From contig JAGIQG010000023.1 in NCBI GenBank assembly GCA_024679065.1, positions 10,044,001 to 10,108,000 on the forward strand: a stretch of 64,000 nucleotides of DNA. The letters run 5' to 3'. Positions 1,043-62,718 of this stretch are shown here, piece by piece; the first letter of the stretch is position 1, and each line of letters opens with the position of its first letter. Position numbers and translations under genes: made by a program. The notes beneath the pieces were generated by a model, which worked only from the letters and a program-made list of their open reading frames with translations, did not search any database and was not told the DNA's origin. This DNA comes from Sphyrna mokarran. Its lineage: Eukaryota.

Positions 1043-1206
1043 TCAACCTCTTAACTCTTTAGGCTTTTGAATCTGCAGTGCTGCATATGTGACTCTTTCC
1101 TCATTGTTAGTGAAGCGGACAGTTTGCTTGCCATGTGTTTCTGCTGAGTTCCCTCGATTGCACTTTACATTGGCATACTCATTTTCTCTTCCAGAACTGC
1201 CAATTG
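1043..1206 (-). CDS. Cytoplasmic-tail exon with ITIM (VTYAAL) and NEYANV tyrosine motif; putative last exon of gene A
   Basis: Pyrimidine tract + cag acceptor (AG at 1208-1207); phase-1 frame [15 protein letters not shown]...[18 protein letters not shown]; phase matches the end of gene B's TM exon. Confidence 0.75.
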
Positions 1207-4200
1207 CTGCAAGATAGAAAATAAAGATCCAATTTATTTCCATTTAACTTGAATGGAGATTAATGGAGACATTAATTTCTAGATTATTGCAAATCAATTC
1301 ACAAGTGATCGCAGCATTTGGTAATATATCTCCAGCAGTGAAACACATCATTTGTCCCAACTCCATATAAACCTGTCCAAATAATCTCATCAAAATAACA
1401 TTCAAATCCTTTCTTCTCATTGCTTATCCAGCTTCTGTTTGAATGCATTTCAGCCATTTGCCTCAACTGTTCCCTGTGGTGGAAAAATCCACATCTGAAC
1501 ACTCTGGATAAAGATGTTTCTCTTGAATTCGCTGCTGGATGAATCTTTTTTATTCACACATTGAATGTGGGCATCACTGGCTGGGCCAACAACTGTTACC
1601 CATCCATAATTGGATTGAGAGGGGGAATTTTTGAATTGTATGTAGGCCAGACCAGGCACAAGCAGCAGATTTCCTCAGGGAAATATCTCTAAATGACATT
1701 AATGAAATGGAGTTTTTACTGGAATCAGCAATAGTTTTATGATCATCATTAGATCTTTAATTCCAGACTTTTATTGAGTTCTGCCTTGGTGGGATTTGAA
1801 CTCAAGTCCCCAGAGGATGATTCTGCATTTCTAGATTACTAATACAATATCACTTCATCAGTACCTGTTATCAATGACTATCCACTATTTATGGTCACTG
1901 TTTTTGGTCTTGCCTGCAATTGGAAACATCTTTGTTATCTCTTCCTGAATCTTGAAGATCTCAATCAGATCATTAATCAGAGAAATCCAGCTTGCTGAAT
2001 CTAGCCTTAAATTTTTAATTTTCCAAGGCAGATTGTGAAAAGGAATTTTGCTGCCATTCAGCGAAATTGTACCTCGCTTCCTCAGCAGACCAGATGAAAC
2101 TCTCGGGATTTTAAATCAACCTTTGTTTACACTTTAGTGAGGAAATCTGTCCCCCACAAGATGGCGCACTGGTACAGGGCACGCACCATTATAACTTTCC
2201 ATATTTTACATATAATTCTCATGCACCAATCACAAGTATACATTTGTTTAGAAATCATTAATATTCAATTACAGCAAATAGTTCTGACTACTTCATTTAT
2301 GTCAGGTGAATATAGTTAACCAGGTATATCCTCCGTATTTAAAGTTATAAGTTTATTTATTTGTTTGTCACAAGTAAGTTACTGTGAAATTCCCACAGTT
2401 GCAACAATTCAGTTCAATGTACAGGACCAGCATATCCTTCATAATGTGAACGGAAACTGGACCACCCAGAGGAAACCCACATAGATACAGGGAGAATGTG
2501 CAAATTCCATACAGACAGTGACCCAAGCCGGGAATTGAACCCAGGTCTCTGGTACTATGAAGAAACAGTGCTAACCATTTTCCTACTGTGCCGCCCCGTA
2601 TATGCTTGTCTAATTATAATGATTCATTACGAATGAAGTTTGCTCACATGATTCTACCATCTAAACATCCACACCTGTTATGGCTTGTGCTGGCTATCTG
2701 TAATTATGGCAACTGCACCGAAACATCTTCACAGCAGCTTCCCAATGAACTGTGCTGTAATTAATTCATAGGGGAACAGGACTGCGTTCAATGATGCAAA
2801 CCCCTTCAGAATGACAGCATCTTTCATATTACCATCTCACAGTAGAACAAGCATAGAATGTCCATATTTAATGGAAAGAAATACATTTATTTGAAGCCTT
2901 CAAAATAGTAAAATGCCCCTAAAACCATGGCAGCAACTTCAGGTACAAACTCAAATTAAACCAAGGAAGGAGATATTAGTGAAGGTAACCAAAATCTTTC
3001 AAAGGTTTAAGGCAAAGACATTTCAAAGAATGCCTTAAAGGAATAATGAAGTGATGAATTAGACAGAGAGGATTCCAGAGCTTCAGGACTAGATGGGTGA
3101 AGTTACAGCAAGGTCAATCTCTCATCACAGAACAGGTGGAATCATTAGCTTTTGATATCATTCTCTTATTCTCAATTTTTGTTTTGTTTTGGCAGTAATA
3201 CTTTAGATTTTACAGGAATTTCTGAGAACTTAAACTGACAAATGTCATTAAATCCAAAGTTGGGATGAAATAAGTAACAAGGTCTCATTTCTGAAGATAA
3301 AGCCAAGGTCTGTCTCCCTTTGTGCCCATCCAATGAGATTAAAGATTGGAGCCAATCTAAGGTGTAGTCCAGTCAAACAGCATTAATACATTTAAGGCAA
3401 ATCCACAGAAGCAAATGTGAGTGAAAGGAACTGTTCAGGTTGGATAAAAGAGGATGGGAAGAGGTTTGTGCTGAACATCAAACAGCCTACACCTGGTCCT
3501 ATTTCTTATTGTCTTATGGTTTCTATCATTCTAAACTCATGTTGAGTTTCATTTGCTCCCGAGTTCACAAGGTTATTTGTTGTTTCCAAACAACAGTAAC
3601 AACTTCAATATTCTTCTATGTTGAATACATTTATATTAGAAGGTGCAGGATATGAAAATCAGAGATGTACGTTGACTGCAGCAAATTAGGTTCTCTTTAT
3701 ATTCTTCAGAAATTGATTGGAACATAAAATGATTCCGGAGAATTTGCCTCTGATATAAAAGTAGAGAAATGGCAAACACCACAAGAATGGTCCCCAGCAC
3801 CCCGAGCACAAACCAGAGTGTGACACAGAGAGTAGGAAATGAGCAGTGTTGGACTTTATAATCATAGAAAGTTTGGTCCATCATGTCTGTTGTGTCTAAA
3901 AACCAGACCCCGCCCCCATAGTCCCATTCTCCAGCATTTTGTCCATTGGTCTGCAGATTATACAGACATCTTTGAAATGAGTTGAGTATCTTTGACTCTA
4001 TCACATTTTCAGAAATCTACAGCCGTCTGGGTGAAAACACTTTTCCTCATCTTTCCTCAAATCTTTCTACCAGTTTCTTTAAATTTATGCACCTCAGTCA
4101 CTGATTTTGCTGCTAAAACAAACTGGTCCTTCCCATCCACTCTATCTGGGCCCTTTACAATGCTGTGCATCTCAATCAATTCTCCCCTAAACCAAGCTGA

Positions 4201-7200
4201 ACAACCCTAGCTGATCAAACTTTTCTTCTTGGGTGTAATTTTCCAGTCCTGGCAATTTCCTCTCTGATAAATCATTTTTGTCATGAGGTAACCGGAACTG
4301 CACACAATACTCAAGCTGTGGCCTGGCTAATATCTTATATATAGTTCTAGCATTATCTTTCTGACCTTATATTACATCTCTTGGCTAATAAATGAAAGGA
4401 TTCCATGTGCCTTCTTAACCGCCTTATTGATCTATCCTGCTACCTTCAAAGACTTATGGACATTCATTCCAAGGATTTTCATTTCCTCTATACCCCCCAG
4501 CATCCTCCCATTTATTGTCTAACCATTTGCTTTGTTTGACCTGTTCAAATGTATCACCTCACACTTTTCTAGGTGGAATTCCATTTGACACTTTTCTGCC
4601 CATCCATTGATATCTACTTGCGGTCAATAGCAATCCGCCTTGCTATCTACAGCATTAGTAATTTTTATTGTATTACATATAAATCATTAATATATGCCAG
4701 AGAAAGCAGGAGACCTAGCACTGAGTATTGGAACCAGCCTTCCAGTCACAAAGACAGCCATCAACAATCATCCTTTGTTTCCTGCCATAATTGATTCTTG
4801 GCCATTTGTTCACAGAAGTGGGTTTTGAAATTATATAGCACTTTTCTCATCCTTTGGGTGGTCTAAAGAACTATACACTCTAGGAAATACTTTTAAAAAA
4901 TCACCAATGTTGTGATATAAAAGATGTGGCAACCAATCTGAACACAGCAAAACCTCAGAAACAGCAGTGAATTTTGACCAGATCAATAGTAGCCATTTCG
5001 TCAGTGCTTTCCTTGTCTGCTTTCTCTGTAAATAAGAAGTGACCTGCTGCGTATTTCCAGCAGCTTTTTCATCATGTTGATGTTTAACTGGTATTTTCTC
5101 ATCGTCATCATTGTAACCTCAGTATTTACGTTGGACAACAATTTCTACTCTTTCTATATGCCCCAATTATATTAGGGATTGTGAGTTTAACAGAAAAAGA
5201 AAAGACTTGGTTCCCACATGTAGATTCAAGCAAACACAAAACAGGTTTTAATGAAATGCTGCTTCTGCACTGTATCAAGTTGAAAACTAACAGTAACACA
5301 GCAGCCTGAGCACACACCCTAATGGTGTCACATCAAATCAACCCTTTTTAAAATTTGCATCTTTATTATGAAGTGAACACAACAACATCTCGCCAACATT
5401 CCTGATATGAGACGTATTGAAAAATGATGCCCAGTCTCCTGGATCGTCAGAGCCTGAACATATGACCCAAGATGTGTGTCAGGACCCTGCAGATGACTCA
5501 ACATGATGACCTCCATGAATTTCCTGGGATATTGGAACTTCCTGGGTCCCTCTGTGAAAATCTTCAGCTCTGGGTAAGAGCTTCAAACAATTCATTGGGG
5601 CTTACCTGGATAATTACCCAGGAAATATTAGACTGAAAGAATCAAGTTTTATTTCTGAGTAGACACAGAACTAACCCCTGAATAATCACACTGACTGCTG
5701 AACTCCCCCAATCTGCTGATGAATTCCCTGACATATCAACTATCACCCCACACTTCCGATTATCCTATCTGATCTTGTGACTAAGTCACAACCTGAGCCA
5801 ATCCGATTATTCTCTGTGAATATCCCTTGCACCCATCACTTCATAACCCAATGTCCAAATCTGATTAACCTCCAAACCAGCTACCCCTGCCAACCTGACA
5901 CAATTATTCATCTACTACTTCATCAACTTACACCTCACCCAACTGCCACCCTCTCAATCTACCACTTCACCTATCTGCAACCCCACCCATCTCACATACT
6001 TACGACACACCCATCTGTCTTCTCATCCACCTATCATTCTTGCCTCCAATTACCAACACATTTATACACCTCTCTCCCTATCCAGCTTACACCCTACCTA
6101 CCTGTGGTCCTATAGAGTTCCAATGGAGTTCTCCGAGGGATGCTGCACTTCACAGATCTGGAGAATCAGGACTCGGGAGATCAGACAAGAAATGTGGAGC
6201 TGAGTCGAGGGTGGAAAGCATTGAGTGGAATGGCAATCCAATTGCTGCTCTGTGACTGACCCAGGACAATAAATGACATCCATCCTTGTGCCAAACTTAT
6301 TAAAGAGGATTTAATCACTCACACAGAAGCCATATCACTTCAGCACTAACAATAAAAACAACATACCTTTCAGCAGGTTTGGAGTTTGGAATTAAGGAAT
6401 GTGTTGGTGATACTTCACAAGAATTTTCAGGTCCGACTGAAACGAGAAAAACAGCATTCAGATCAGCCTCATTTTCATTGTCGTTAAATGAGAGAGTCAC
6501 ATTGTCAAGTGGCACCTTGACCTGAGGGAGAATCTCTTTGAGGAAGCACCTCATCTTGGGATGTGGGCGTCTCTGTTGAGGTCAGCAATTATTGCCCATC
6601 CTTAATTGCCCTCAAGACAATGGTCATGAGATGCCTCTTAAATCATTTGTGGTGTAGGTACATCCACAGTGCTGTGAGGGAGAAAGCACCCATTGCATCT
6701 ATGCCACTCAAAGCCAAACCACCTTACTATTCTAACCCCATTTTCCAACATGTGGCCCATAGCTTTGTGTGCCTTGGCATCATGAGCGCACATCTAAATA
6801 ATTCTTAAATGTTAATGAGGGCCTGTAAGGCACCAAGGAAATTTGCCTATTCCTCCTGGAAGAGTTCCAGGCAAACATTTACATTTAGCTCAAAGGACAT
6901 GTGGGTCAGCAGTTCAACCAGACAATAGCACTGTCAACAGCAGAGCACAATCTCCGTGCTGTACAGGGATATTAACACCTTTATCGGAAAGAGAATTTGA
7001 ACTCACAACCCATTGGTTTCAGAAATCAGACTGCTACCAACTGAGCCCCTTCTAACACTGACATCCTTGAATATTAAACATTCAAACAGGTTAAAGTGCT
7101 CATTGATTCACAATTATAATTAGTGTTTATGTTAACACCGGATAATTCATGGAATTCTGAGAGTTTGAGCATCATTTTGTGATGCAAAGAATGAAATTTG

Positions 7201-9274
7201 GTCCATTGCCCTCCATCGCTATGAAATAATTTGCCATTCAGAATCATAGAATCCATGCAGTGTACAAGGAGGCCATTTGGCCTATCAAGTTTACAGCGAC
7301 ACTCCCATTGCCATGTATTTTTCCCAAATCCTCATAAAAGTCTGCTCCTTTTTTGCTTCCCTTGTAAAAGCTATTATTGATCCTGTTTCTAATGCAATCC
7401 ATACATTTATAATCACTTGCATCAATAAAATTCTCCCAATTTCCCTCGCTGTTCCTGTTGTGATGATCTTAATGTATTCTCTCAAGCATTCACTCACTTA
7501 CTAGTGGAAATAATTAGTCTCAATTTAACTAATCAAAGCCTCTAATAATTTTGGGTAGACATAGCAGATCATTTCGTTCTATTGTAATGGTTTTCTAGTA
7601 GTGTTAGCTGTTGGTAGCACTCTTGTGTCTGCATCCAGAATGTTCTATATTCAAGCCCTACTCTAGGACTCAAAAATCAAAGCTGATACTCCAGTACCGT
7701 ACTGAGGAAGTGCTGCGCTGTTGGAGGTGCTGTCTTTTGGATGGGATGTTGCACTGAGTCCCCAATCTCCTGCTCTATGGGTCTCATGGTGGCACTGCTG
7801 CCTCACTATGCCAGAGACCCGGGTTCAATTCTGGCCTCAGGTGTCTGTCTGTGTGGACTTTGCATGTTCTCCCCATGTCTGCGTGAGTTTCCTCCAGCTG
7901 CTCCAGTTTCCCCCATAATCCACAGTGTGTGGGTTAGATGGATTAGCCAAGTTAAATTGCCCCTTAGTGTTAGAGAGAACAAGAGTAAATGCATGGGATT
8001 ATGGGAATAAGGCCTGGGTGGAATGATTATTGGTGGAACTCAAATGGTTACCTTCTGCACTGTAGAATTCTATGGATTCTATGAATGTATGGATGTATAA
8101 GATCTGTGGCACTCGATCTCCTGAAGAAATGCAGGAGCGTTATCCCAAATCACCTGGCAATATTTATCCCTCAATCAAAAACAGGTTCTTAGTTCATTCT
8201 TTTGAGTTTGCTGTATGCAAATTGGCTGCTGTGTTTCCTGCCTCACAAGAGCGACAACGCTTCAAAAAGCATTTCATTGGTTGTAAAGTGCTTTGAGAAG
8301 TCAGGTGACAATGAAAATAAACGTGAGACATTCTTTCGTTTTGTAAGTGAGACCTTTTAAAATGCCGTAATTTCACATCAACTCTTTAACTTTCTATCTT
8401 CATCATTCATCCTAAAGCAAGTGACACCAACTAAAGATTGTTTTTCATGATTTGATTTCCAAGAAATGGGAACAGGAATGATTACTGAGATTTTATCAAT
8501 CAAATTCTGTTAAATTTTAATGGGATTACTGCAACGTTTACACATGTTTGGGAAATATCTTATGATCCTGATATTTTCAATCAATAGTTTTATCAGTAAC
8601 TTTGTTCTGATTGGTTGATGGATAAAGAAAAATAAATTTTGTCAGTTGCAAATCATTCAGAGAGGCAGTAGGAAGCTAACCAGCAACCAGAATAGACAAA
8701 CGACAATAAATATTTTAGTGACCACATTGTACATTTACACCATCACTTACCAACACTGTTGATCTGTGTCACATAACTGCAATTCTCCCCTGATATATTG
8801 ATCACTGACACATTAACCATTTCACTGGATTTATTTCCCTGGTTATTTAAGGCTGTGCAGTAATATTGATGATGTCGCTGTGTGAAGGATTGACAATGTA
8901 GATCCAGTTTATTGGTGTCAGAGATCTTTGAATCTTCATTCGGGGTCTTTTCATACCATGTGTACTGAATGGGAAGAGATCCCTGGACAGACTCACAGGA
9001 GACGGACACTGAGCCCCCAGAACATGAGGCATTTGGTCGTGATAAAAATCTAAGTCCAGGAACAGACACAGGTTCTGTGGGCAAAAGGCAATTATGAATG
9101 GATTTTCACAGTAATTTCATTGTCGTCTTAATGTACACCTACGTGTGACACTGAGTTCGAAAAGCTTTAACTTTAAACTTTAAATGATTAAGTTTTAGAA
9201 TGACGAAAAAACTAAATGCTTATTGCCAATATTTCTACACCTCATCCAGGATGTGAGGAGGAAGGGAAAGTGTT

Positions 9275-9308
<34 letters not shown>

Positions 9309-12300
9309 GAGGGAACTTGGCCAAATGCAGATAGTATCTATTGATTGCTCTCACAGATAGTCATGATAGCAGATTAGTTAGTGACAAGCATTGGAGTGTG
9401 AACTGAGATGTTTGCTGAGATAATGGAGACATAAATATTTTTCCTAAAATCTAATCTTGACATGAATTCTCTGATACCGAAGGATCTGCCCTAGTTGCCA
9501 GTTGGAGCAGGGAATTTGACGCTCAGCCAAATCTTCATTCACAGCAGCAGGACTGGAGGATTCCAGCGATGGAAGGCTTTGCTGAACTCTGGCTATTGTC
9601 TGTATTTGTATTCAATATTCATTAGGAAGAACCATTAACATTAAGCTGTGAGTACTGTTTGAAGTCTAGGGTGGAATTTTATCACCTGGATTGAGCGAGA
9701 CTGAAAAACCTGCCCACGGTCAACAGACATTTCCATTGATTGCCCCACACCCACTCTGATACCACGGCGGGCAAGGCAGTAAAATTCCGAGGTAAATATC
9801 ATCCAAAGGTCATGAGCTGGGAGATAGAAGCTATCAGCTTCTCATTAACTGGGGAAACTGGCTTGAAGTGCTCTTTTTGTACTGAGTCCCTTTGTTTTTG
9901 AACTCAGCACTGGAGTCTGACTTCAAACGACAGTGGAGATTTAATAAGCAGAAGGAACTTACTACAGGAGAAGAAATGAGCTGTTGGTGAGTATCTGGTG
10001 AGTATTCGGGAAGTGGTGAAGGCCCAATGTCCAGGCATAGGGAGCATGGATGGTGTCCTTGCCAAATTGTTAACAAGGAGAGATTGGTCTAAGGTGAAAT
10101 AAATCTGACCCCATCTCTCTGGATCATTACTCTGAGCCTCTGAATTACAATTCTTCCAACATAATCATTGTTCTAACTGCCCTCTAGCTGCCAGACACTG
10201 CACTGCTGTGGAACCTCCAGACATCGGAGCTTATCCTCCCAGATAAAGTACCGATCAGTCAGTTCAGTTGAGAGTAATAAAGATAATCACAGAGAACAAT
10301 TTACCATCAGATATTTGTAGTCTTACAGGAAATATTGAAAGTAGCCCGGACTTAGCAATACCACAGCTGTACCATCCTGCATCTCCTGGGCGAAGATCCT
10401 CCATAGTAACGACAAATAATCCTTGTGTCTTCTTATCTGTGATTGAAATTCTCCCTCGCCATCCATCTGGATCGTCTGATTTTACCAAAACAGTGCACTG
10501 ACGACTCCAATATTTCACATGTGACTGGAACAATTTGTCATAGTGACAATCGATAGTGATCGCTCTTCCCAAAACTCCTGTTACATTATTTTTTGCCCAC
10601 AATGCACTTGGAGCTGAAAAGACAACAGGTCAAAAATTGAACTGAAAAAATTGTTTAATACAAACAGATATATTTTAAATAAGATTTAGCACTGTGTTCA
10701 GAGAAATATCTCCAATACATCTTCTAATGTATTTGAATACTTCCTTGATTGAGATCATTGGGCTCATTGAACATGTGCGCTCTGTGGATTGATAATTAAC
10801 AATCATATTGAGATTGCACACTAAGTCCTTTATAAAGCAAGACCTTAAGAGGTATCATTAATCTTTTAGTCCTGGTTGGGATTTGTTCTGTCCACCACAG
10901 GTTTATTTCCATTTTGTACAATAAAAGCACCATTTCTTCACATCCGCTTCCAGGAGTTACTGCATTCTCAAACAGCAATTGTTAGACAGCAAATTGTCTT
11001 CTCATGATCACTTTGCTCTTTGAGGGAGCTTATTGCTTATAAATTGGCGCTAAACTTCCTACATAACAACAAAGGCTCTGAATCAGCATTGATCAGAACA
11101 GACTTCAAAACTGTCTTGAAGTTGTGAAAAATTGAAAAATAAATGCAATTCTATTTTTATTAAAAATTGTTTTGGACGATCATTAGAACTAAGCCCGTGA
11201 GCAATTCAGTTAGACGTTAATTTAAAACTTAACTGAATTTCAGAAGCTTAAAGAGATATTTACCACTGTTGCTGAAATGTGTCACATAAGTGCAATCATT
11301 CTCTGATCTGTTGATCACTGACACAGTAACCATTTCACTGGATTTTTCTCCCTGGTTATTTGAGGCTGTGCAGTAGTATTGATGACGTTGCTGTGTGAAG
11401 GATTGACAACGTAGATCCAGTTTATTGGTGTCAGAAATCTTTGAATCTTCAGACGTGGTCTTTTCATACCATGTGTACTGTATGGGAAGTGATCCCTGGA
11501 CAGACTCACAGGAGATGGACACTGAGCCGCTTGAAAGTGAGGCATTTGGTGATGATAGAAATCTAAGCACAGGAACAGACACAGGTTCTGTGGAAATAAA
11601 AATTATTAACGGATTTTCACAATAATTTCATTGCAGTGTTAATTTAAAACTAGTTGTGACACTAATAAAAAGTTTTAAGTTTAAACTTTAAAAGTTTGAA
11701 TGTGAAAATGACCAAAAAATTACATAGTTTCATATTACCCCCAATATTTCTCCACCTCACTCACAATGTGAGGAGGAAGGGAAAGTGTTAGAGAGAGAGA
11801 GAAGCGTGGCCAAATGTAGGTTGTATCTATTTATTTCTCTCACAAACAGCAGATATTCATGACAGCAGATTAGTTAGTTGCAAGCACTGGAGTGTCACCT
11901 GAGATAGACTGCAGGAGATTGCTGAGATAATGGACACTTAAAAACCTATTCTTGCCCTGAATTCTCCGATATCGAGTGATCTGCTCCCGCTGCCAGTTGG
12001 AATAGGGAATTTGGCACTCTGCAAATCTCCATTCACAGCAATGGGACTGGATAATTCCAGCTACGGACAAGTTTGGTGAATTCCAGCCATTGTTTGTATT
12101 TAACATTCAACAGTATGCACAATTCAACATTTAAGTATGAGTATTGTCTCAAGTCTAAGGCAGGGTTTAATGGCCTCAAATCAAGGAGACTGGAAAATCC
12201 CACCCAAGGTCAACAGACATTTCCATTCTCTGCCCCACACCTGCTTCAATACCATGGCGGGCAAGGCAGTAAAATTCTGACATAAGCATCATCCAAAGGA

Positions 12301-15300
12301 CATGAGTTGGGAGATTGAAGGTCTCAACTGGCAGTAATTGAAATAGTTTAGGGGAAACTGAATTGAACTGCTCTTTTTATACTGAGTCCCTTTGTTTTGG
12401 AACTCAGCAAAGGAGTCTGACATCAACCAAGTGTGGAGGTTTAATGAGCTGAAGGAATTTACTACAGAGTTGTTGGTATCTGATCAGTATTCGGTAAATG
12501 GTCAAGGTCTATTACCCAGGCATAGGGGTATGGGTGGCATCCTTGCCAATTTTTTAACCAGAAGAGCATGGTCCAAGGTGCAATAAATCTGCCCCCATCT
12601 CTCTGGATCATTACTCTGAGCCTCTGAATTCCAATTCCTCCAACATAATCATTGTTCTAACTGCCCTCTAGCTGCCAGACACTGCACTGCAGCAGGGCCT
12701 TGGTATATCATAGAACATAGAACATTACAGCGCAGAACAGGCCCTTTGGCCCTCGATGTTGCACCGACCAATTAAGAAAAAACAATGACCCTCTAACCTA
12801 GACCATTCCCTTTTCATCTATAAACCTATCCACTGACCTCTTAAACGCCTCCAAACTTGGTGCATCTACAACAGCAGCAGGCAGGGCATTCCATACCCTT
12901 ACCACCCTCTGGGTAAAGAAACTACCTCTGACATCCGTCCTATAACTACCAGCCCTTAATTTAAAGCTATGTCCCCTCGTGCTAGCTTTCTCCATCTGAG
13001 GAAAAAGGCTATCACTGTCCACCCTATCTAAACCTCTAATCATCTTATATGTTTCGATAAGGTCCCCTCTTAGCCGCCTCTTTCTAACGAAAACAACCTC
13101 AAATCCCTCAGCCTCTCTTCATAAGACCTGCCCTCCATACCAGGCAACATCCTGGTAAACCTCCTCTGTACCCTCTCCAATGCCTCCACATCTTTCTTAC
13201 AATGTGGGGACCAGAACTGTACACAATACTCCAAGTGCGGCCGCACTAGAGTTTTGTACAGTTGCAACATGATGTTGCGGCTCCGAAATTCAATCCCCCT
13301 ACCAATAAAAGCCAAGACTCTGTATGCCTTCTTAACAACCTTATCGACTTGATTGCCAACTTTCAGGGATCTATGCATATATACACCAAGAACCCTCTAT
13401 TCATCAACACTATTAAGAGATCTACCATTAGCCCTATACTCTACACATTTGTTATTCCTGCCAAAGTGAATTACCTCACACTTTTCCACATTGAACTCCA
13501 TTTGCCACCTCTCGCCCAGCTCTGCAACTTGTCCAAGTCTCTCTGCAAACTGTAACACCCCTCTTCACTATCTACCACTGCTCCAACTTTGGTGTCATCC
13601 GCAAATTTACTAATCCATCCTTCTATACCCTCATCCAGATCATTTATAAAAATTACAAGATCGGAGCTGTCAATGTCTCCTCCCAGATAAAGCAGCAATC
13701 AGACATACTGAGCTTAATAAAGATAATCACTGAGAACAATTTACCTTCAGATATTTGTAGATTTACAGGAAATATTGAAAGGAGGCCGAGCTTATCAATA
13801 CCACAGCTGTACCATCCTGCATCTCCTAAGCGAAGATCCTCCATCGTAACAACAAATAATCCTTGTGTCTTGTTATCTGTGATTGACATTCTCCCTCGCC
13901 GTCCATCTGGATCATCTGATTTTACCAAAACAGAGCACTGACGACTCCAATATTTCATATGTGACTGGGACAATTTGTCATAGTGACATTCGATAGTGAT
14001 CGCTCTTCCCAAAACTCCTGTTACATTATTTTTTGCCTGCAATGTACTTGGAGCTGAAAAGACAACAGGTCAAAATTGAACTCAAAATATTTGTTTAATA
14101 CAAACAGATATATTTCAAAGGGATTTACCACAGTGTTCAGAGAAATGTCTGCAAAACATCTCCGAATGCAATTGAATACTTCCTTGTTTGAGATCGCAGG
14201 TCTCATTGAATATGTGCTATCGTGGATTGATAATTAAAGAACTATTTTGATGTAGTATACTCATCACTTCATGAAGCAAGACCTTGAGAGGTTCCAATAA
14301 TCTTTTAGTCTGATTGTGACCTGTTGTATTCACCGCAGGCATGTGGTTATTGTTTATTTTCATTTTGTACAATAAAAGAACAGCTCCTTCACATCCTGCT
14401 CCTGGAGTTATTATGTTCTCAAACAGCAATTGTCAGATAACAGATTGTCTGCTCATGATCACATTGGTCTATGCGGGAGCTCATTGCTTATAAATTGTGC
14501 TGAGCTTTCCACATCATAACAAAGGATCGGAATCAGTTCCAGCACTGACCAGAACAGACGTTAAAACTGTCCTGAAGTTGTGAAAAGTGAAAAATAAATG
14601 TAATTCAGTTCTATTAAAATTAATTTGAATGACCAATAGAACTAAACCAGTAAGCATTTCAGACAGACATTAATTTAAAAATTAGTTGAAATTTTTGAGG
14701 CTTAAATGGATATTTACCAATGTTGCTGATTTGTGTTAAATAACTGCAATCATTCTCTGAAATGTGGATCACTGACACAGTAACCATTTCACTGGATTTG
14801 TTTCCCTGGTTATTTACGGCTGTGCAGTAATATTGATGATGTCGCTGTGTGAAGGATTGACAATCTAGATCCAGTTTATTGGTGTCAGAGATCTTTGAAT
14901 CTTCAGACGGAGTTTTTTCATACCATGTGTATCGAATGGGAAGTGATCCCTGGACAGACTCACAGGAGATGGACACTGAGCGCCCAGAACATGAAGCATT
15001 TGGTGGTGATAAAAATTCAAGTTCAGGGACAGACACAGGTTCTGTGGGAAAAAAAACAATTATTAACGGATTTTTACAGTAATTTCATTGCAGCGTTAAT
15101 GTAGTTTGCTTGTGACTCAAATAAAGATTTAACTATCAACCTTAAAATTTTACACTTTAGAATGACCAAAAAATTAAATAGTTTTATATTACCAGTATTT
15201 GTCTACCTCACCCAGGATTTGAGGGGAGAAGGAGAGAGAGAGAGAGATTGAAGTAGGAACTTGGCCAAATATAGGTAGTACCTATTGCTTGCTCTCATGG

Positions 15301-40647: not shown

Positions 40648-40649
40648 TA

Positions 40650-43966: not shown

Positions 43967-44059
43967 CTATACTCTTTAAATTCATCACCAGGACAGATAT
44001 AAGTTGAAACTCATTAAAGGATCTTTTGCCAAGCAAAGTCACTACATACAAACACACAA

Positions 44060-45210: not shown

Positions 45211-45411
45211 GCATTCAGCTACTTGTTATTTCCTCAAAGAGTCCCAAAACATTAGCCAAGCATGACTTCTCTTTCACAAAACCAGTTGAATGCATAACCT
45301 CTTTAATAATAACAGAACATAGAACATCGAACAGTACAGCACATCACAGGTCCTTCAGCCCTCAGTGTTGTCCAAGCTATGTCCAAACCCAAGATCCACT
45401 CCCTATGTGGA

Positions 45412-45528
45412 GTGGAGATGTGATGTGGAGGTGTGATGCGGTGATGCGATGTGGAGATGCTGGCGTTGGACTTGGGTGGGAACAGTAAGAAGCCTCACAT
45501 CACCAGATTAAAGTCCAACACATTTGTT
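45412..45528. mobile_element. Penelope-like terminal fragment in the palindrome spacer
   Basis: Same end sequence as 49989 (gatgtggagatgctgg..aaagtccaaca), with stuttered gatgtg repeats. Confidence 0.65.
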
Positions 45529-45544
45529 CAGCATTGTAAAGGAT

Positions 45545-50159: not shown

Positions 50160-50289
50160 CTCTACCTCCTGTCCAGCATTTGCAAGGCAGAAGTCAGGAG
50201 TGTGATGGAATATTCTCCACTTGACTGGGTGAGTGCAGCTCCAACAGAAGTCAGCGAATTGCCTGGATTTGAAAATCCTTTGATATCAT

Positions 50290-52027: not shown

Positions 52028-52064
52028 ATGTGGATTCTTATTCTTTTCATCTTTTCTCTGCCTG
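52028..52064 (+). CDS. Gene B leader exon ([12 protein letters not shown])
   Basis: ATG at 52028, G|gtgagt donor. Confidence 0.9.
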
Positions 52065-55000
52065 GTGAGTAAGGGACAAAACTGGATACCGAGATGATGA
52101 GTGTTAGATTAATTCTAGTGCATGGTTTATTCTGCAGAGATATTTAAACACTTGGAGACATGTAAGGGTGTAAAAACTCAGCAAAAATAAACTAATGGCA
52201 TTTTTGTGATATTTGTAGCTTGTTTGTTGATACTTTTTTACCACAGAAATATTTACCAGCAAATAGTAAACAGCATTATTGGTTATGACTATAAACTAAT
52301 CTATACAATTTTCTTATAATTATTAAAATGCAGAAGTAACATATTTCAGACCAGTAAAAGTTAACTTGTTAATGTAGTTTCATGCTCAATATATCCGGAG
52401 ATTGGAGAGTTTGATTCGTTCAATTGGTTGGAGTGCAATGCAGAATGATTCCAATGACAGGGGTTCAATCTTTGGACCAGCTATGGTAGTTTTTGGAAAT
52501 CTGCCTCCTCACCTTTCCCTGTTCCTGTGGAGAGATGCTCCTCACACTCTATGTAACCAATTGTCTCTCCCTAACATTGAGAGATGCCTGTGATCCATTG
52601 CAGAGTATTGCTCAATGAATTGAATCTTAAAACTGCAGAAATAACAAAGGCTCAAGGAAAATATTCCTCAAGTTTGCAATTGCTTCTATTAATAAAATTA
52701 CATCTGATGAAAGTTTTATCAATCTCTGTCAGTGACTCTGTTGCGCTGAAACCATACAGTGCACAAGGAGGCCATTCAGCCCTTTGTGCCTGCACCAAAG
52801 TGCGTGTTATCCATGGCTGAAATGCCATATATTTGCCTCATTAATTTTCTTAACTTATGCATCTTGGGACAATAAGAGGCAATTTAGCATGTTCAGCCTG
52901 ACCTGAATATCTTTGCAGTACGGGAGGAAGCTGGAGTACCCAGAGGAAACCCACACAGATACGGGGAGAAAATGCAAACTCCACACAGACAGACAGCCGA
53001 GGCTGGATTTGAACCCGGATCCATGGCGCAGTGAGGCAGCTGTGCTCCCCACTGTGTTAACGTGCCACCCAATCACTTGTACATGCTTCGTCTACTTTGT
53101 CTATCCATGGTGTAGTCATTTTCTTCTCATTTTTTGGCGTTTAACAAAGTAAATCTAAATTTTCATGCCAGCCCCATGTTAAACTGATATTATTATGCTG
53201 TCTACAATGGAATTTTTGATTCGTACTGCCACCTCTCCTCCTCAAGATGAACATTAGAAATAGGAGCAGGAGTTGGCCATTTGTCTCTTTGAGCTAGCTC
53301 CATCATTCAGCAACATCCTGACCGATCTCCAATCTCAATTTTATTTCCTGCACCATCCCCATATTCCTTGATTATGTTGTTGCCAAAAAATTGTATAAAT
53401 CTCTGTGTTTAATATCCTTCAAGACTGAACACCTAGAACTCTTTGGGGCAAAGAATTCCAAAGATTTGCTACAACTTGAGTGAATAAAAATCTCCTCATC
53501 ACATCCTTCGTATTTGTCATTTTATTGTGAGACTGTGATCCTGTGTTGCAGAATACCAACCCTGGTAGGGTGGTACATATATGCTCAAAATGTACCCTGT
53601 CAAGCTCCTTAAGAATTTGACACATTTCAATTCAATCACCTCTAATTCTTCCAACTGACAGGAAATATGCTTCTTATGGACTCAACCTGTTCCCATCCCA
53701 TCCCATTATCCCAGGAACCAGCCTTGAAAACCTTTGTTGTACTTTTTCCTGAGTAATGTGTCATTCCTGCTGCATTGACCTGTGGGGCAGACTAAGGCCC
53801 AGATTGCCGTCCCTGGGCCATGTTCACTGAGTCGGGGAAGGCAATAAAAAATGAGTTGGGATGGGTGACCCGGGAACAAATCCACAGGCTGCTCAGCCCG
53901 GAGGCGAGCTGGACACAAGGCCTGTTTCTGTGCCCCAGTGCCATGGTTAATAAATAAAATAATTTAAAGAGCCAAATTGTCACTCCGACCACTCACCAGA
54001 GTTGGTCTCAAAGGGTAACTTCCTTTTCCAGAAGGTACACCCTGGCTGTCCGTAAGTATCCACCAAATTCAGACCTTGTCTTCACTATTCTAATCTGCAC
54101 ATTCCAGATTCCACACACACTTCTCTTCAACCAAAATCCCACTTCACTTGAGGTAGATGATGAATTTAAAGCAATCCAGAGTTGAATGAATCATGTCTGT
54201 GTGAATGCCAGCCCGATTCCAGTCCCACTCCTAATCTTGGGGCTTTGGAATTCCAGACATCCCCGGGATTTTCTCCATGACAGGGGCCCTCCAAGCCTGG
54301 GTGTCAGATTAACCTTTTATCTGAAAGTCATCACTGAGCTGTGTGAACATGACTGGATGAGGAAAATCTGAGCCATCTCGTCCCTCAGTATTACACTGGA
54401 ATGTTCCTGTAGATTTTATACTCCAGTCTCTGGAGTGGGACCTGACCCTGCAATCCACCCATTCAGAGGCACCAGTGCAAAGCTTGAGTGACAAGTGACA
54501 CAATAACAATGGCCACCATACATTAACAAGAAATCATTGGCAGTGAAGTACTTTAGCACTGACAGCACGGCTTTATATTCATGTTTTCATTCAGCACAAA
54601 CTAGAAAGAGAATGATGAATACAGATATTGGAGAGTTCCCTCTGTACACAGTGGTAAATCTTATTAAAATGTTTTTCTCTGCATTAAGCAGTTATTTACT
54701 TGGTCAATTGCTGAAATGTTGTCTCCTCAGTTTCAGGTGCATTGTGGGCAGAAAAGAGAGTCACAGGAATTGTGGGAAGAGCGATCACAATAAATTGCTA
54801 TTATACTGAACAATACAAAGAAAATGTGAAATATTGGTGTCAGGGTTGGACTGACCTGTGCTCATATTTAGTGAGAACGGATGATCCAGATGGACGGCAA
54901 GGGAGCATATCAATCACAGATAATAAGACACAAGGAGTATTTGTTGTTAAGATGGAAAATCTTAACGCCGGAGATGCAGGATGGTATCGCTGTGGAATTA

Positions 55001-58000
55001 ATACACCTGGCATCGATCCAAAGTTTACTGTGGAGCTGCAAATATCTCACGGTGTGTTATTCTCAATGATTTTCTTTGTTACTGAAATATCTGATCCATG
55101 TTTTATCGGTGAGGAAACATTGACAGCTCTGATATCCCGAGGCTTTACAGCATTGACAGCTAGGGGGCAGAGATCTGGAAATCTGTGTGAAACAAACTCA
55201 ATTTGTGGCCTGTCCAACATTCTGATCAAAAACTTCAAACATTATCAGACTAACAATTCCTTTAACTATAGGATATTGTGAAAGACATTACCTGCAATAC
55301 TCAGACTATTTTTCTATCTCTGAAATGTATTAAATATCACACTGTCAGATTTTTACAGTCCAGGTCAGTCTAATAGTCAGACATTAACAAAGTGAAGTGA
55401 GCAGCCAGTCGGTAGTTAATTGTACCTTGTTGGTTTAGCAGTGAATGGTGGGGCTGTGGGCGTGGATGGGGGTGCACAGAGGGGTTAAAAACTCAGAAAT
55501 TGACAATATGTTGGGAAGTCAGTCAAACTTCCAACATCCGTATGTATCCGCAATGTGTCAGTTTGTGCTTCTTTCAAAGAAACCAGTGAAAATGTAGGGT
55601 GAAGCTGACAGATTAAAAGTTAACAAATTGGCAAATTTAACAATTAAATAATCCAATATGGCGGAAGCCCCTGAAAGGGATCAAAGAACAAAGAACAGGA
55701 CAGCACAGGAACAGGCCCTTCAGCCCTCCAAGCCTGCACCAATCGCATTTACCTATCTAGACGAAGTGCTTATATCCCTATCTTCCCTGTTTGTTCATAT
55801 GTCTGTCACGATAAGTCTGAAATGTGGCTAATGTATCTGCCTCAAAACTCACTAAGCAGTGTGTTTCAGATCCCCACCCACCATCTGTATAAAAACATTC
55901 CTCTGCACATTTCTACTGAAACTTTCCTCTCTGACCTTGAATGCTGGCCCCTTTGTAATTGTCATTTCTGCCCTGGGGAAAGCTTCCAACCGTTCACTTT
56001 ATCTATAACTTTCATAATTTTATAAATTTCGATCAGATCGCCCCTCAGTCTCCGTCTTTTTAGGGAAGAATAAACCCAGCTCATGCAAACTCTCCTCCTA
56101 TCTAATACTCTCCATACCAGGCAACATCCTGGTAAATCTTTTCTTCAATTTCTCCAATGCCTCCACGTCCTCCTGGTTGGGCGGTGACCAGAATTGAACA
56201 CAATATTCCAAATATTCCAAATGATCATAGAAAACACCATGGAAACTTTAAACACGTCAATCCGTGTGTGATCAAATCCCCCAGTGAGAGATCGGTTATC
56301 AGTTTCAGTCTACTAATCAGTCAGCGAGTGTAATTAGTAGAATCTACCTGCGGCTGATTGGGTTACTGAGCAAGGGCAGAAAACAGAGGCAATGGGGGAG
56401 GCTGAAGAAGTGACTGGGAAAGATGCCACAAAGGATTGGAACCTCACTGCTTATTTCTAAGTGGATTGTGTGAAAGGTTTAATATCAATATTTACAGGGT
56501 GTTGACTTTCACAACAGTGTTGGGAATGTGTATTTCTGGGTGACATTTTGGCGATTGTGTCTATCAGATCAGCATGGGTGGTTTTCAGGCTGTTTATATT
56601 TTGGGCCTCAGATGGGATCAATACCATCAAGAGCAGCAACTGCCTCCTCCACACAGACCCTGAGCTCCACAAGACAAAGGATTGAACAGAGACAAGCAGC
56701 TTGCTGACGGGCAATCCCACAACACAGGGAGTACACGTTTCCTGATCAGCTTCCGTGATGTGTTGGAATTCCAGTGTCTGAACAGGCTCATTTGACAACA
56801 ACCAGAACGCTTCTCCAATACAGAGTGATTGAGTCTGAAATGTGGTCAGCGGGTCCAAATCCCACTGGAGAGGCCCGCAGCGTAGTTCTGAATGGACCAC
56901 AGCACACACTCTGATCTGTCACTGCGGGTATTGGCGCATGCGCATTGACCCCCTCACCACTGGACTCCCGTTCACTGGCTATCCCGATTCCGCCTTCATC
57001 ACCACCATCCGACCACTGGCCTACCAGAGCTCTCCTGGGCCAACCCCAACCTCCTCCCTCCCAGACGGCCAACACTGTTCGCCGTCCCTTTTCCTTCTCC
57101 CGTCGATCCCAGTGCACAGTGAAAACCCCCCAACTCATTGAGCCCCCAATAGGTCCCACCCTCCAGTATGTCACCCCCCCACCCACCCCAGAACCACCCA
57201 CATTGGCACTAATGCCTGGTGGGAGGTTCACATACTTGTTTCTCATTCATATGGGGACACGTGCATCGCTGCCTGGATGGCATTTATTGCCCATCCCGAA
57301 ATGTTTACGAGGCCATTTCAGAGGACAGTTAAGAATTAACTGCATTGCTGTTGCTCTGGCATCTCATGTAGGCCAGACCAGGAAAGGATGGTAGATTGCA
57401 TCCCCTAGTAGGCATTAGTGAACCAGATGGGTTTTTCCAACACCGACAATCATTTCATGGTCATCAGTAAATTCTTCATTGAAATCAAATTCCATCACTT
57501 GCTGTGGAGGGATTCGAATCTGGGTCCCCAGAGCATTAATTGAGATTCTGGATTAATAGGTTAGCAATAACACCTCTGGGCCACCACTTCCCCATTTATA
57601 TATGCATATCTTTGGTTGTGGGAGGAAACATCTAGAGGAAAACCACGGAGACACAGGGAAAACATGCAAACTTCACATTGAACACACAGCCAATGCTGGA
57701 ATTGAATCCGGGTCCCTGGCGCTGTGATGTTGCAGTGCTAATCACTGTGCCACCGTGCCATACTGGATCCAATCTAATCCCACCATCTAGTTCTTATCCA
57801 GAGCCCTGTAAGTTACAGTATCTTAAGTTTAATCCATTTTCTTTAATGTGATCAGATTATCCCATTCTCTCACCCTTTACCACACTTCCAGGCAGTGAGC
57901 TCCGAACCTCAACATTCCCTGAGTGAAATAACACATTGCCCTAAATCTCTTCTAATCCATTTATCAATTAATTTAAATCTTTGTCTCCTGGTTCATGGCC

Positions 58001-61000
58001 TGATCTGGAGAGCTGCTTTATTCTTATGTAATAGTAGAGATTGTAGTTCAGGCTGCTTGGTGGCTGGAGAGATATGGAGAGCAAGATGTGAAATTGCAAC
58101 ATGACTGATGCTGAATGAGAGGTTGATGAGCTGAAATTCACAGTGTGTTTGATTTTTAATTGTTCACACAGTTTCTGAATGTTTGTTCCATTCGCACAGA
58201 ACCCATGTCTGTTCCTGAACTTAAATTTCTATCACTACCAAATGCCTCACGTTCTGGGGGCTCAGTGTCTGTCTCCTGTGAGTCTGTCCAGGGATCACTT
58301 CCCATTCAGTACACATGGTATGAAAGGACCCCGTCTGAAGATTCAAAGATCTCTGACACCAATAAACTGGATCTACGTTGTCAGTCCTTCGCACAGCGAC
58401 ATCATCAATATTACTGCACAGCCTCAAATAACCAGGGAGACAAATCCAGTGAAATGGTTAATGTGTCAGTGATCAATAGCTTAGGTGAAGATTGCAGTTA
58501 TGTGACAGAGTCCAACAGCATTGGTAAGTGATAGTGTCAACAAACAATGTATCATTGAAATATTTATTGGTGTTTGTCAAAAATGATAAAATTTACTCTG
58601 CTTTGTCCATCAGCCACTCGGAAAAAGTTACTGATTAAAATATTAGTTGAAAATAGCAGAATCATAAAATATTCCCCAAACATGTGTAAATATTGCAGTA
58701 ATCCCATTAAAATTAAGTAGAACTTGACTGATAAAATCTCCATTACCATTCCTGTTCCCATTTCTTGGAGATCAAATTGTGAAAAACAACCTTTAGCTAA
58801 TGTCTCTTGCTCTAGAGTGAATGGTAAGGATAGAGAGCTGAATAGTTGATGTGAAATGATCACATCTTAAGAGATCTCACTTACAAAATGAAAGAATGCC
58901 TCGCATTTATTTTCACTGTCACCTGACTTCTCAAAGCACTTTACAACCAATGAAATGCTTTTTGAAACACTGCCACTGTTGTGAGGCAGGAAACACAGCA
59001 GCCAATTTGCACAGAGCAAACTCAAAATAATGAACTGAGAACCTGTTTTTGATTGAGGGATAAATATCACTGGGTGATTTGGGATAATGCTCCTGCATAT
59101 CTTCAGGAGACTGAGTGCCACAGATCTTATACATCCATTGTTTCAAAGAATCCATAGAATCCTTCAGTTCAGAAAGAGGCTTTTTGGCCCATTGAGTCTC
59201 AGAATTCCATGTTCTAAACACAGAATCAAACTCTCAGAATTCCATGTTCTAAACACTGAATATTCAGTGTTAACATAAACACTAACTATAGTTTGGAATT
59301 AATGAGGATTTTAACCTGTTGAATGTTTAATATTCAAATATGTCAGTGTCAGAAGGGGCTCAGTAGGTAGCAGCCTGATTTCTGTAACCAATGGATTGTG
59401 AGTTCAAATTCTCCTTCCGAGAAAGGTATTGATATCACAGTACAGCACGGAGATTGTGTACTATTGTCTGCTGACCCATATATCCTTTGAGCTAAATATA
59501 CATGATTGTATGGTCCTCTTCCAGGCGGAATAGGCTTATTTCCCTGGTGTCTTAGAGACCCTCATATATTTAAGAATTATTTAGATATGCACTCATGATA
59601 CCAAGGCACACAAAGCTATGGACCACGTGCTGGAAAATGGGATTAGAATAGTTAGGTAGTTTGGCTTTGATTGGCACAGATGTGATGGGTGCTCTCTCCC
59701 TCACAGCACTGTGGATGTACCTACACCACAAGGACTGCAGCTGTTCAAGACGCATCTCATTATCATCATCTCAAGGGCAATTAGGGATGGACAATTAGGC
59801 TCCACTAAACAGTGACATCCACATGCCAAGAAGAAGTGCTCCCTCAACAAGGTTCTCTTTCAGGTCGAGTGTCACTCTTCAATGTGACTTTCTTGTTTAA
59901 TGATAATGAAAATGAGGCTGATCTGAATGTTGTTTTCTTGTTTCAGGTGAACATGAAAATTCTTCAACAGGATCGCCAACACATTCCTCAATTCCAAACT
60001 CCAAACTTGCTGAAAGGTACACTGTTTTTATTGTTAGTGTTTAAATGATATGGCTTCTGTGTGAGTAATTAAATCCTCTTTAACTACTTTGGTGCAAGGA
60101 TGGATATCATTGCTACTCTGTCAGTCACAGAGTAGCAATCATCGTTGGATTACTATTCCTTTTCACCCTCAACTCAGCTGCACATGTCTTGTCTGAACTT
60201 CTGAATCCAGATTCTCTAGGACTGTGGAGCGCACCATCCTTCAGCGAACTCCGTTGCAACTCTGTAGGACCACAGATGGATCGGGTGTAAGATGGATAGC
60301 GAGACAGATATATAGATGTATTGTTAGTTGGAGGCAAGTGTGGTAGGTGAGTGAGAAGACAGATGAGTGAGGTCATGAGTGAATTGGGTAGGGTGGCAGT
60401 TGGGCGAGATAGTAGTTTGATGAGGTGACAGGAGGGTAGGGTAGAAGTTGGGTGAGAAAGTAGGTTAATGAAGTGGTAGATGAATAGTGTGGTAATTGGG
60501 TCAGGATGGCAAGGGTAGCCTGCTTTGAAGGCTAATCAGATTCAGACATTGGGTAATCAAGTGGTGGGTGCAAAGGGTAGTTAGAGAGGATAATTGGGTT
60601 GGCTCAGGTTGTGGCATAGTCACAAAATCAGATGGGATATTTCTGGGTGTGGGGTAATAGTTGTGTCAGGGGGTTCATCAGAGAATTGGTGAGAATTCAG
60701 GGGGGTCAGGGTGATTAATCAGGGGTCAGATCTGTGGTTACCCAGGAATTAAACTTGATTCTTTCAGTCCAACATTTCCTGGGTAACAATCCAGTTAAGC
60801 CCCAATGAATTGTTTGAAGTGTTTGACTCTCACCTAGAGCTGAATGTTTTCACAGAGGGACCCAGTGAACAGCAGAATTGTCCAGTGCCCTTGGCAATTC
60901 CCATGGAGGTCATCATGTTGGGTCATGTACAGGGTCCTGACACATATCTTGGATCATATGTCCAGTCTTTGATGATCCAGGAGACTGGGCATCATTTTTC

Positions 61001-62718
61001 AATAGCTGTTAGATCAGGAACCTTGGCAGGGTGTTGTTGTGTTCGCTTCATAATAAAGGTGCGAATTTTAAAAAGGGTTGATTTGACGTGACGTCATTAG
61101 GGTGCGTGCTCAGGCTGCTGTGTTATTGTTAGTTTTCAACTTGATGCAGTGCAGAGAGCAGCTCTTCATTTAAATCAGTTGTGTGTTTGCTTGAATCTAC
61201 ATGTGCAAACCAAGTCTTTTCCTTTTCTGTTAAAACCCACAATCCCTAACATAGTTGGGGCATACAGAAACAGCAGAAATTATTGTCCAATGTAAACATG
61301 GAGGTTACAATAATGACAATGAGAAAATACCAACAAAACATTAACATGATGAAAAAGCTGCTGGAAATACACAGCAGGTCACTCCTTATCTATAGAGAAA
61401 GCAGACAAGGAGAATCCTGAAGAAATGACCAATATTGATCTGGTCAAAGATTGCTATTTCTAAGATTTTACTGTGTGCAAATTAGTTGCCATATCTCCCA
61501 TACAACAATAGTGGTGGCTGTTTAAAAGTACTCCCTAGATTGCAAAGCTCTTTAAACCATTCAAAGGTCATGAAAAGTGCTTTATAATTTCAAAACCTAC
61601 TTCCATAAACAAATGGCCAAGAATCAATTATAGCAGGAAACAAAGGATGATTGTTGATGGCTGTTTTTGTGACTGGAAGGCTGGTTCCAATGCTCAGTGC
61701 CATGTTCTCTGCTTTCTTTGGCACATATTAATGATTATATATAATACAATGAAAATTACCAATGCTGCAGGTAGTGAGGAGGATCGCTATCGACTGCAGA
61801 TAGATATCAATGGATGGTTCAGGTGGGCAGAAAAGTGTGAAATGGAATTCCACCTAGAAAAGTGTGAGGTGATACATTTGAGCAGGTCAAACAAAACAAA
61901 TGGTTAGACAATAAATGGGAGGATACTGCGGGATATAGAGGAAGTTAAAATCTTTGGAGTGAATGTCCACAGATCCTTGAAGGTAGCAGGACAGGTCGAT
62001 AAGGAGATTAAGAAGGCACATGGCAACCTTTCATTTATTAGTCAAGTTATGGAATATAAGGTAGAAAGATAATGCTGGAACTATTATTATTATAAGTTAG
62101 GCCACAACTTGAGTATCATGTTCAGTTCTAGTCACCTCACGACAGAAAGGATTATCAAAGTGGAGATTTATAAGGATGTTGCCAGGACAAAAAAAATTTG
62201 GTTAGCTGAGGTTGTTCTCCTTGGTTTAGGGGAGAATTGATTGAGATGCGTAGCATTGTAAGGGGCCCGGATAGAGTGGACGGGAAGGACTAGTTTTTTT
62301 AGCAGAGAGATCAGTGACTAGGGAGCATAAATTTAAAGAAATTAGTAGAAAGATTTGAGGAGAGATGAGGAAAAGTGTTTTCACCCAGAGGGCTGCAGTT
62401 TTCGAACAGGGTGGTAGAGGCAGAAACACTCAACTCATTTCAAAGATGTTTGGATAATCTGCAGGGCAATGGACAAAATGCTGGAGAATGGGACTACAGT
62501 GGCGGGGGGCAAGGGGGGGTTGATTTTTAGACACAACAGACATGATGGACCAAGTGGTCACGTTCTGCGCTGTAAATTTTCTATGATTGTAAAGTCCAGC
62601 ACTGCTCATTTCTATTTTCTGTGTCACAGTCTGGTTTATGTTGTACTCGGGAGACTGGGGGCCAATCTTGTGGCGTTTGCTATTTCTCTACTTTTGTACC
62701 GGAGGCGAATTGACAAGG
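52028..62718 (+). CDS. Gene B (spliced, 3'-incomplete): CD300/pIgR-like type I receptor, leader-V-C2-stalk-TM(Arg)
   Basis: Five exons, 841 nt open, phases 1,1,1,2,1; no cytoplasmic exon found in the window. Confidence 0.88.
54731..55051 (+). CDS. Gene B Ig V exon
   Basis: ctcag acceptor, G|gtgtgt donor, 321 nt; [11 protein letters not shown] and DAGWYRC motifs. Confidence 0.92.
58200..58523 (+). CDS. Gene B Ig C2 exon
   Basis: cacag acceptor, G|gtaagt donor, 324 nt. Confidence 0.92.
59947..60016 (+). CDS. Gene B Ser/Thr/Pro-rich stalk exon (GEHENSSTGSPTHSSIPNSKLAE)
   Basis: tttcag acceptor, AAG|gtac donor, 70 nt. Confidence 0.82.
61625..62585 (+). mobile_element. Old degenerate CR1 LINE
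   Basis: [25 protein letters not shown] motif. Confidence 0.8.
62630..62718 (+). CDS. Gene B transmembrane exon ([30 protein letters not shown])
   Basis: Pyrimidine tract + cacag, G|gtgagt donor; phase-2 start matches the stalk; hydrophobic run followed by RRR. Confidence 0.88.

Follow-up and report, generated by a model that had tools for sequence, protein, structure and literature searches.

We analysed a 64,000-nucleotide window of the Sphyrna mokarran genome (contig JAGIQG010000023.1, positions 10,044,001 to 10,108,000; coordinates below are those of the window), which holds two head-to-head receptor genes, gene A on the minus strand and gene B on the plus strand. As judged from their exons and closest relatives, both belong to the MDIRs, a known CD300/pIgR-like receptor family of sharks and rays. 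We propose that an inhibitory MDIR gene underwent inverted duplication, and that gene A now likely encodes a secreted protein and gene B a membrane receptor with a new arginine and a new asparagine in its transmembrane (TM) segment. Taken jointly, these parts have about an even chance of being right; secretion of the gene A product, considered by itself, is rather probable. An earlier note on this DNA had read the locus as an inhibitory gene A, linked to an immunoreceptor tyrosine-based inhibitory motif (ITIM), opposite an activating gene B. That pair is not supported as stated, because the TM exon of A carries lesions and the TM of B is of the class that goes with ITIM tails. The interpretation probably shifts to a soluble and a membrane-bound product derived from one inhibitory MDIR.

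Self-comparison of the window revealed six collinear inverted blocks, which place 3492-45215 onto 62984-45656 around a spacer at the axis (45216..45655, no strand). A head-to-head pair from a single inverted duplication, as the earlier note had proposed, is thereby borne out. The introns of the two genes mismatch at 12.7% of 9,541 aligned columns. Gene A comprises a leader, ten V-C pairs of immunoglobulin (Ig) domains and a stalk (22 exons, 6,434 nt, an open frame of 2,144 aa). Gene B comprises leader, V, C, stalk and TM exons, all of them open and with canonical splice sites. Ig exons number 20 in gene A and 2 in gene B, a contrast on which the earlier note is silent.

Next, we examined the family membership of the two genes. 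A protein search with the V exon of gene B gave 28 matches, all 28 with shark, skate or ray names, and a profile built from eight relatives recovered skate MDIR2, MDIR3 and MDIR5 (each E <= 2.3e-118). The closest relatives thus form a multigene family of cartilaginous fish that includes the named MDIRs. V1 of gene A and the V domain of gene B are of the CD300/pIgR/TREM type with an extra C-C' disulfide (four Cys), and V domains are combined with C2/I-like domains in variable number, as (V-C)10 in A and (V-C)1 in B. Skate MDIRs are described as multigene families with activating and inhibitory receptors in the available part of PMC3031540; because both kinds were already known from cartilaginous fish, the idea of a pairing is not new. 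We then surveyed the anchors of 128 relatives with a rough rule, under which some rows are mis-called from fused or partial gene models (P0010, P0033). It assigned 46 to a non-Arg-Trp TM with ITIM-like motifs and 38 to a W-x-V-x-R-W (Arg-Trp) TM without motif; 2 combined Arg-Trp with a motif (40 of the 128 being Arg-Trp in total), 11 fell elsewhere and 31 were without TM. The Arg-Trp class, which includes MDIR5, would be the natural candidate for the activating type of the family. Genes A and B both carry the non-Arg-Trp class, and the three closest Mustelus genes all have ITIM-like tails. Among these relatives, Mustelus P0254 has the layout V1-C-(V2-C)5-stalk-TM-ITIM; its class I TM is intact, and ITIM-like motifs are present. 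A class I TM with an Arg occurs together with ITIM-like motifs in P0011 of white shark and P0129 of skate.

The exons of the gene A ectodomain were then read on the minus strand. A leader exon (40611..40647) encoding 12 residues and ending in a phase-1 donor is followed by V1 (37656..37970), a CD300/pIgR-type V domain with four cysteines, for which an alternative acceptor 6 nt upstream would yield VSGALW, as in relatives. The C1 exon (32304..32627) encodes a second, C2/I-like Ig domain. It is followed by an array of nine V2-C units (18 Ig exons, 8751..31636), resolved by self-comparison and exon reading, with a period of about 2.5 kb; all exons of the array are open, in phase 1 and bounded by canonical AG/GT. 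The 70-nt stalk exon (6367..6436) ends in phase 2 and, like that of gene B, is 3 aa shorter than in three Mustelus genes. Not a single stop or frameshift interrupts the 22 exons, and every splice site is canonical.

This integrity was compared with what unconstrained change would produce. At least 153 substitutions have accumulated among 19 array exons with no stop, where about nine stops would be expected (some 5.7% of random changes). The array exons have no frameshifts, against 14-17 distinct non-triplet indels in each of three flanking intron alignments, and C3 has one in-frame 9-bp deletion. Between A and B, across leader, V, C and stalk, 5.4 frameshifts are expected from intron rates and none is observed (P ~0.005). 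The mean pairwise ratio of nonsynonymous to synonymous change (dN/dS) within the array is 0.45 for V2-10 and 0.55 for the C domains. The ectodomain of gene A looks maintained by these measures.

Domain types within the array differ in character. The V2 domains are 4 aa short and have lost one Cys of the C-C' pair, which leaves three Cys in all nine of them; most C domains of A have five, and the V and C domains of gene B have four each. Such odd numbers in the gene A array could permit disulfides between domains or chains. In the tree, the V2-type units join V2 domains of Mustelus and lamniforms (96/93); C domains were placed by a quick tree only. Branches from V2 repeats of gene A to Mustelus are 0.01-0.08, and the first V domains are 58-79% identical. 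Slow V2 and fast V1 change would fit V2-C units that act as spacers and a V1 whose ligand keeps changing. In both genes, the donor of the last C exon runs directly into an in-frame stop (GK*, at 8750-8743 on the minus strand in A and 58524-58531 on the plus strand in B). The skate model P0005 likewise terminates in GK behind its last C, and read-through at this place is a possible secreted splice form in the MDIR family.

In contrast to the ectodomain, the anchor of gene A is damaged at several places. The motifs named by the earlier note are all present, namely VLGRLGANLV in gene B (62643, +), a TM-like stretch of 10 residues in gene A (3809, -) and VTYAAL (1093, -). Alignment of A with B, however, shows the TM exon of A (3743..3817, -) to be dead. 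Its acceptor has changed from cacAG in B to cacAC at 3819-3818, a 5-bp deletion near 3811 shifts the frame at the start of the coding part, and a 21-bp deletion after 3743 removes the donor; a further 22 bp are missing from the preceding intron near 3874. With acceptor, frame and donor all hit, gene A cannot make a TM-plus-ITIM protein through its ancestral splice sites. No spliceable in-frame TM exon was found for A beyond a weak cryptic route: among 43 AG sites at 4300-3790 only one, a weak AAG at 3969, leads into the frame of the TM. Splicing from the stalk to this acceptor could keep the phase and give an open frame of 111 aa without ITIM through the dead TM (3636..3969, -). A search for a substitute TM exon in 6366-1207 gave 17 AG-GT candidates along with five hydrophobic windows; apart from the dead copy nothing resembled a TM, and ten of the candidates fall within a dispersed repeat at 2441-2596. 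Read-through from the stalk would add 17 residues, which we do not favour as an anchor or glycosylphosphatidylinositol signal, since by eye the segment is short, contains Glu and stops earlier in B.

We also examined the last exon of gene A (874..1206, -), which has a strong acceptor at 1206, VTYAAL at 1093-1076 and ATTAAA at 879. The earlier note had taken it for a downstream ITIM exon and allowed that it might belong to an unrelated gene. It is a true tail exon of the family, as a tblastn search from relatives shows by 73% identity over 41 aa to the tail of Mustelus P0001, and so not part of an unrelated gene. That it is a working ITIM exon is not borne out, since it is frameshifted and stands behind a dead TM. 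(A protein search with its 53-aa tail frame gave three candidates and no homologue.) Whereas the family tail frame begins QLAV in P0001, P0011, P0084 and P0254, the exon read in family phase stops after 13 codons because one base is missing before YANV, between 1191 and 1172; VTYAAL is out of frame both from the stalk and from the family phase. Joined directly to the stalk in phase 2, the exon reads SNWQFWKRK*, with the stop ending at 1179. The 18-aa linker exon expected between TM and tail was not found in gene A (best score 26, shuffled median 27). A frameshift after QIQKP and a later stop were not taken as specific to A, because Mustelus models end or diverge there too. Cumulatively, 22 intact upstream exons with anchor and tail lost point to gene A being likely secreted, at about 237 kDa.

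By contrast, gene B retains a complete set of exons up to its anchor, all on the plus strand: leader (52028..52064), V (54737..55051; Pfam V-set E 5e-12, 51% identity to the skate MDIR2 V domain), a single C (58200..58523; 66% identity to an MDIR3 C domain), a stalk ending in phase 2 (59947..60016) and an intact TM exon of class I type (62630..62718) with donor AGG|GTGAGT. The TM aligns with the GVLG class and lacks the W-x-V-x-R-W pattern. Within VLGRLGANLV, the Arg codon lies at 62652-62654 and the Asn codon at 62664-62666, so that the two residues are spaced i, i+4 and by geometry lie on one helix face. The Arg, which the earlier note had singled out, is indeed uncommon: among 20 class I anchors matched by motif in the 128 relatives, the corresponding residue is Val in all 20, and the position of the Asn is never occupied by Asn. 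Both residues are accordingly derived, Arg having replaced Val and Asn having replaced Ile in an anchor of the inhibitory class. A charged TM residue such as this Arg is what an adaptor-coupled receptor has. As TM Arg and ITIM-like motifs coexist in P0011 and P0129, the Arg alone does not make gene B activating. No tail exon was found in 62719-64000, the 1.3 kb to the end of the window, where the gap from TM to tail in gene A is 2.5 kb. From its sequence, gene B may be an activating receptor or, just as plausibly, a bifunctional or inhibitory one, each falling somewhat short of an even chance; a failing gene would be clearly less likely than either.

Comparison of the V domains of the two genes uncovered a further relation between them. 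As the earlier note had observed, they share a leader and a near-identical first V half: the 12-residue leader peptide is the same in both (A 40647-40611, B 52028-52064), and identity extends to 50 of the first 52 V residues but only 38 of the last 52. The 14 differences in that second half include the FG loop, so that a similar ligand for A and B, as that note had inferred, may or may not hold. In CD300 molecules the FG loop is part of the ligand pocket. A mismatch scan with shuffles delimited a homogenised tract at 37804..38403 (-), where 21 of 600 columns mismatch against a background of 10.7% and none of 1000 shuffles was as low. The end of intron 1 belongs to the tract, with 17 mismatches in about 430 nt, as do the first 141 nt of the V exon, where a single position differs; the last 174 nt of that exon have 26 mismatches. 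It is probably the product of gene conversion between A and B, a process reported for paired opposing receptors (PMC3210942, available part). In the V1-C1 intron, A and B are again highly alike (about 93-96%) at 34022-34468, which is possibly another such tract. V1 of A and V of B group at 100/98. We claim no date for the duplication relative to Mustelus, because the unconverted V half alone gives no resolved grouping.

These observations suggest the following history. The ancestor would have resembled Mustelus P0254, with V1-C-(V2-C)5-stalk-TM-ITIM, and inverted duplication of this inhibitory gene would have yielded A and B. Because the single C exon of gene B is flanked upstream by an intron resembling the C1 side of A and downstream by one resembling the C10 side, B likely shrank from a multi-unit ancestor, presumably when the first C unit recombined with the last. 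The mRNA of gene A is predicted to skip the dead TM, join the stalk to the last exon and stop nine residues on, using the old poly(A) site ATTAAA at 879. A search of sequencing runs with 700-10650 listed no RNA run, which speaks neither for nor against transcription. Its product would be 2,153 aa long, about 237 kDa before glycans, with 38 N-glycan motifs, and could serve as a decoy or multivalent binder. The Arg and Asn of gene B, set in an inhibitory-class anchor, would allow recruitment of a signalling adaptor. With the first V half kept matched through gene conversion, B would face competition or tuning by soluble A at a shared or overlapping ligand. Both steps have parallels: according to the available part of PMC1458963, chicken CHIRs gained a TM Arg more than once from inhibitory ancestors, and such families include secreted proteins, among them LILRA3, LAIR2 and carp SITR (PMC3031540, in part).

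Several points weigh against this history. On the side of gene A, values of dN/dS near 0.5 mean modest constraint, and between A and B the ratio is 0.77 for V (dN 0.086, dS 0.112) and above 1 for the stalk. In the tree, as little as about 0.02 aa changes separates V3 of gene A from a Mustelus V2; much of the substitution in the array may predate loss of the TM, so the purifying signal may partly describe the ancestor. The base missing from the tail belongs to a stretch of four consecutive A, where its absence could reflect a mistake in the assembly. Loss of the linker and of one nucleotide together restore the frame from TM to ITIM, and gene A may therefore have stayed inhibitory for a time. 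On the side of gene B, the Arg lies 15 residues from the cytoplasmic basic cluster, and the best 19-residue hydropathy of the TM is 2.03, compared with about 2.4-3.5 in class I; both polar changes could be decay. An early-genome survey did not find FcR-gamma in sharks, as far as the available part of PMC4016189 goes.

The rival that survives best takes gene A for a pseudogene in early decay, with an ectodomain not yet damaged or kept clean by unequal crossing-over, and leaves B as the lone receptor. The several lesions in TM and tail are what it predicts, as is array constraint that is modest and perhaps ancestral, and 41 of 103 chicken CHIR loci are called pseudogenes in the available part of PMC1458963. 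Set against it are the unbroken reading frame and canonical splice sites of all 22 exons. The leader, V1 and stalk, which are single-copy, are clean as well, and the frameshift deficit holds for both copies together. We consider early decay unlikely, though it is the leading alternative to a secreted gene A.

Two further rivals are both quite unlikely. In the first, gene A is still membrane-bound but without a motif, its stalk being spliced to the AAG at 3969 and the terminal exon adding 111 residues that run across the old TM. Starting at 3969, the frame stays open via a stretch of 19 residues up to the stop near 3636, and the pyrimidine fraction at this acceptor, 0.65, equals the lowest of 22 true acceptors. 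The site is an AAG, however, and is present in the intron of gene B too, so it is not a new one; the start of the helix has been replaced through the 5-bp deletion, and the first poly(A) signal comes at 2891. In the second, the Arg and Asn of gene B are decay or neutral change, and irrespective of A this gene either encodes an ordinary inhibitory receptor or is failing. P0011 and P0129, where a class I TM Arg goes with an ITIM-like tail, fit such a case, as do the ITIM-like tails of all three closest Mustelus genes; 6 of 30 TM residues of B differ from these genes. It is opposed by the intact splice sites, YRRRIDK border and five exons of B, by the Arg codon, which differs from the Val codon of A at all three bases, and by the Asn at i+4.

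The model of the earlier note, with gene A as an ITIM receptor and B as its activating partner, is slightly less probable still. Conversion over the first V half is as in paired opposing receptors (PMC3210942, available part), a phase-1 donor after the TM would suit the 1206 exon in the YANV/VTYAAL frame, and Arg and Asn share one helix face in B. Yet an ITIM-bearing A needs two cryptic sites together, combining the AAG at 3969 with a weak donor of phase 1 (GCA|GTCAAC at 3676, AAC|GTACAT at 3670 or AAT|GTATTC at 3628), or else several assembly errors, including two deletions of 21-22 bp; and the TM of B is outside the Arg-Trp class of the family.

Returning to the preferred reading of a secreted A and a membrane-bound B, we also ask how far it might be extended. 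A giant secreted decoy of 20 domains beside a newly activating B, with TM charge gained independently of the Arg-Trp class and conversion matching half of the ligand-binding domain, would be an unlikely outcome. A bolder form, in which the secreted protein of gene A binds shark immunoglobulin as free secretory component does, is most improbable; shark antibody passage across mucosa is described as unclear in the available part of PMC4279169.

Among known systems, the nearest are MDIR2, MDIR3 and MDIR5 of clearnose skate (ABC86796.1, ABC86797.1, ABC86800.1), which have leader type, V and C modules, stalk and TM/tail classes in common with genes A and B. Unlike them, gene A lacks a usable TM and has as many as 20 Ig domains; in searches that extended to proteins of 2,000 aa, the largest relatives (P0001, P0002 and P0254) had 12. 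Where MDIR5 has an Arg-Trp anchor, gene B has an Arg in a class I anchor. Mustelus asterias LOC144511706 (XP_078098058.1, the P0254 above) shares with A the layout V1-C-(V2-C)n, a near-identical stalk, the TM class and the tail exon. It and LOC144511684 (P0001) have retained Val/Ile in the TM, a linker exon and in-frame ITIM-like motifs, and their stalk exceeds that of A and of B by 3 aa. The best solved single-domain matches to the V domain of gene B are CD300f (E 1.7e-18) and then CD300a; V1 has the C-C' Cys pair. pIgR chains outscore CD300f, through several domains, and NKp44, TIM4 and TREM domains also match. CD300s, however, have one V domain and pIgR has V domains only, whereas here V alternates with a C2/I-like domain; the ectodomain of pIgR and secretory component is likewise all V, against V-C pairs in A and B.

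Functional parallels come from families with other Ig domains, or Ly49, and are analogies, not membership. Chicken CHIR-A/B/AB, KIR and Ly49 have activating or bifunctional forms derived from inhibitory ancestors through TM charge, as proposed for B, and bifunctional chicken CHIRs combine TM Arg with ITIM-like motifs, as do P0011 and P0129 (both from the available part of PMC1458963). Secreted LILRA3, LAIR2 and carp SITR lack a TM (PMC3031540, available part), as proposed for A. What the locus adds is a readable record of how this family makes new forms, with anchor and tail lost from A while the ectodomain was kept and expanded, and fresh TM charge in B. Should A indeed be secreted, a family for which no known ligand was found would gain a soluble protein of 237 kDa that could readily be sought in plasma or mucus and used as bait. 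No account of this locus or of a TM-less MDIR of comparable size was found in the literature covered, which was mostly open papers with MDIR itself named only in PMC3031540; the supplement of PMC3964593 had no match for six gene names, and PMC6795676 does not mention pIgR, CD300 or MDIR.

Finally, some minor observations were made. The C-terminal ends of Mustelus models P0001, P0002 and P0003 match intron sequence of this locus, so that the 3' ends of these public gene models are probably erroneous; the TM-less P0002 and P0003 were discarded as proof of secreted forms for the same reason. A remnant of a reverse transcriptase of the long interspersed nuclear element type (Pfam RVT_1, E 1e-28) lies at 35358-36740 (-) inside the V1-C1 intron of gene A, and is absent from gene B because it sits in the gap between two inverted blocks. 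A 25-bp minisatellite occupies 1-251, about 600 bp beyond the poly(A) signal of gene A, and a 14-base piece of its unit recurs in mirror orientation at 63983-63996, the far end of the B arm (E 0.04). If that is the paralogous place, gene B would have lost its tail region; the match has no extension and may be due to chance.

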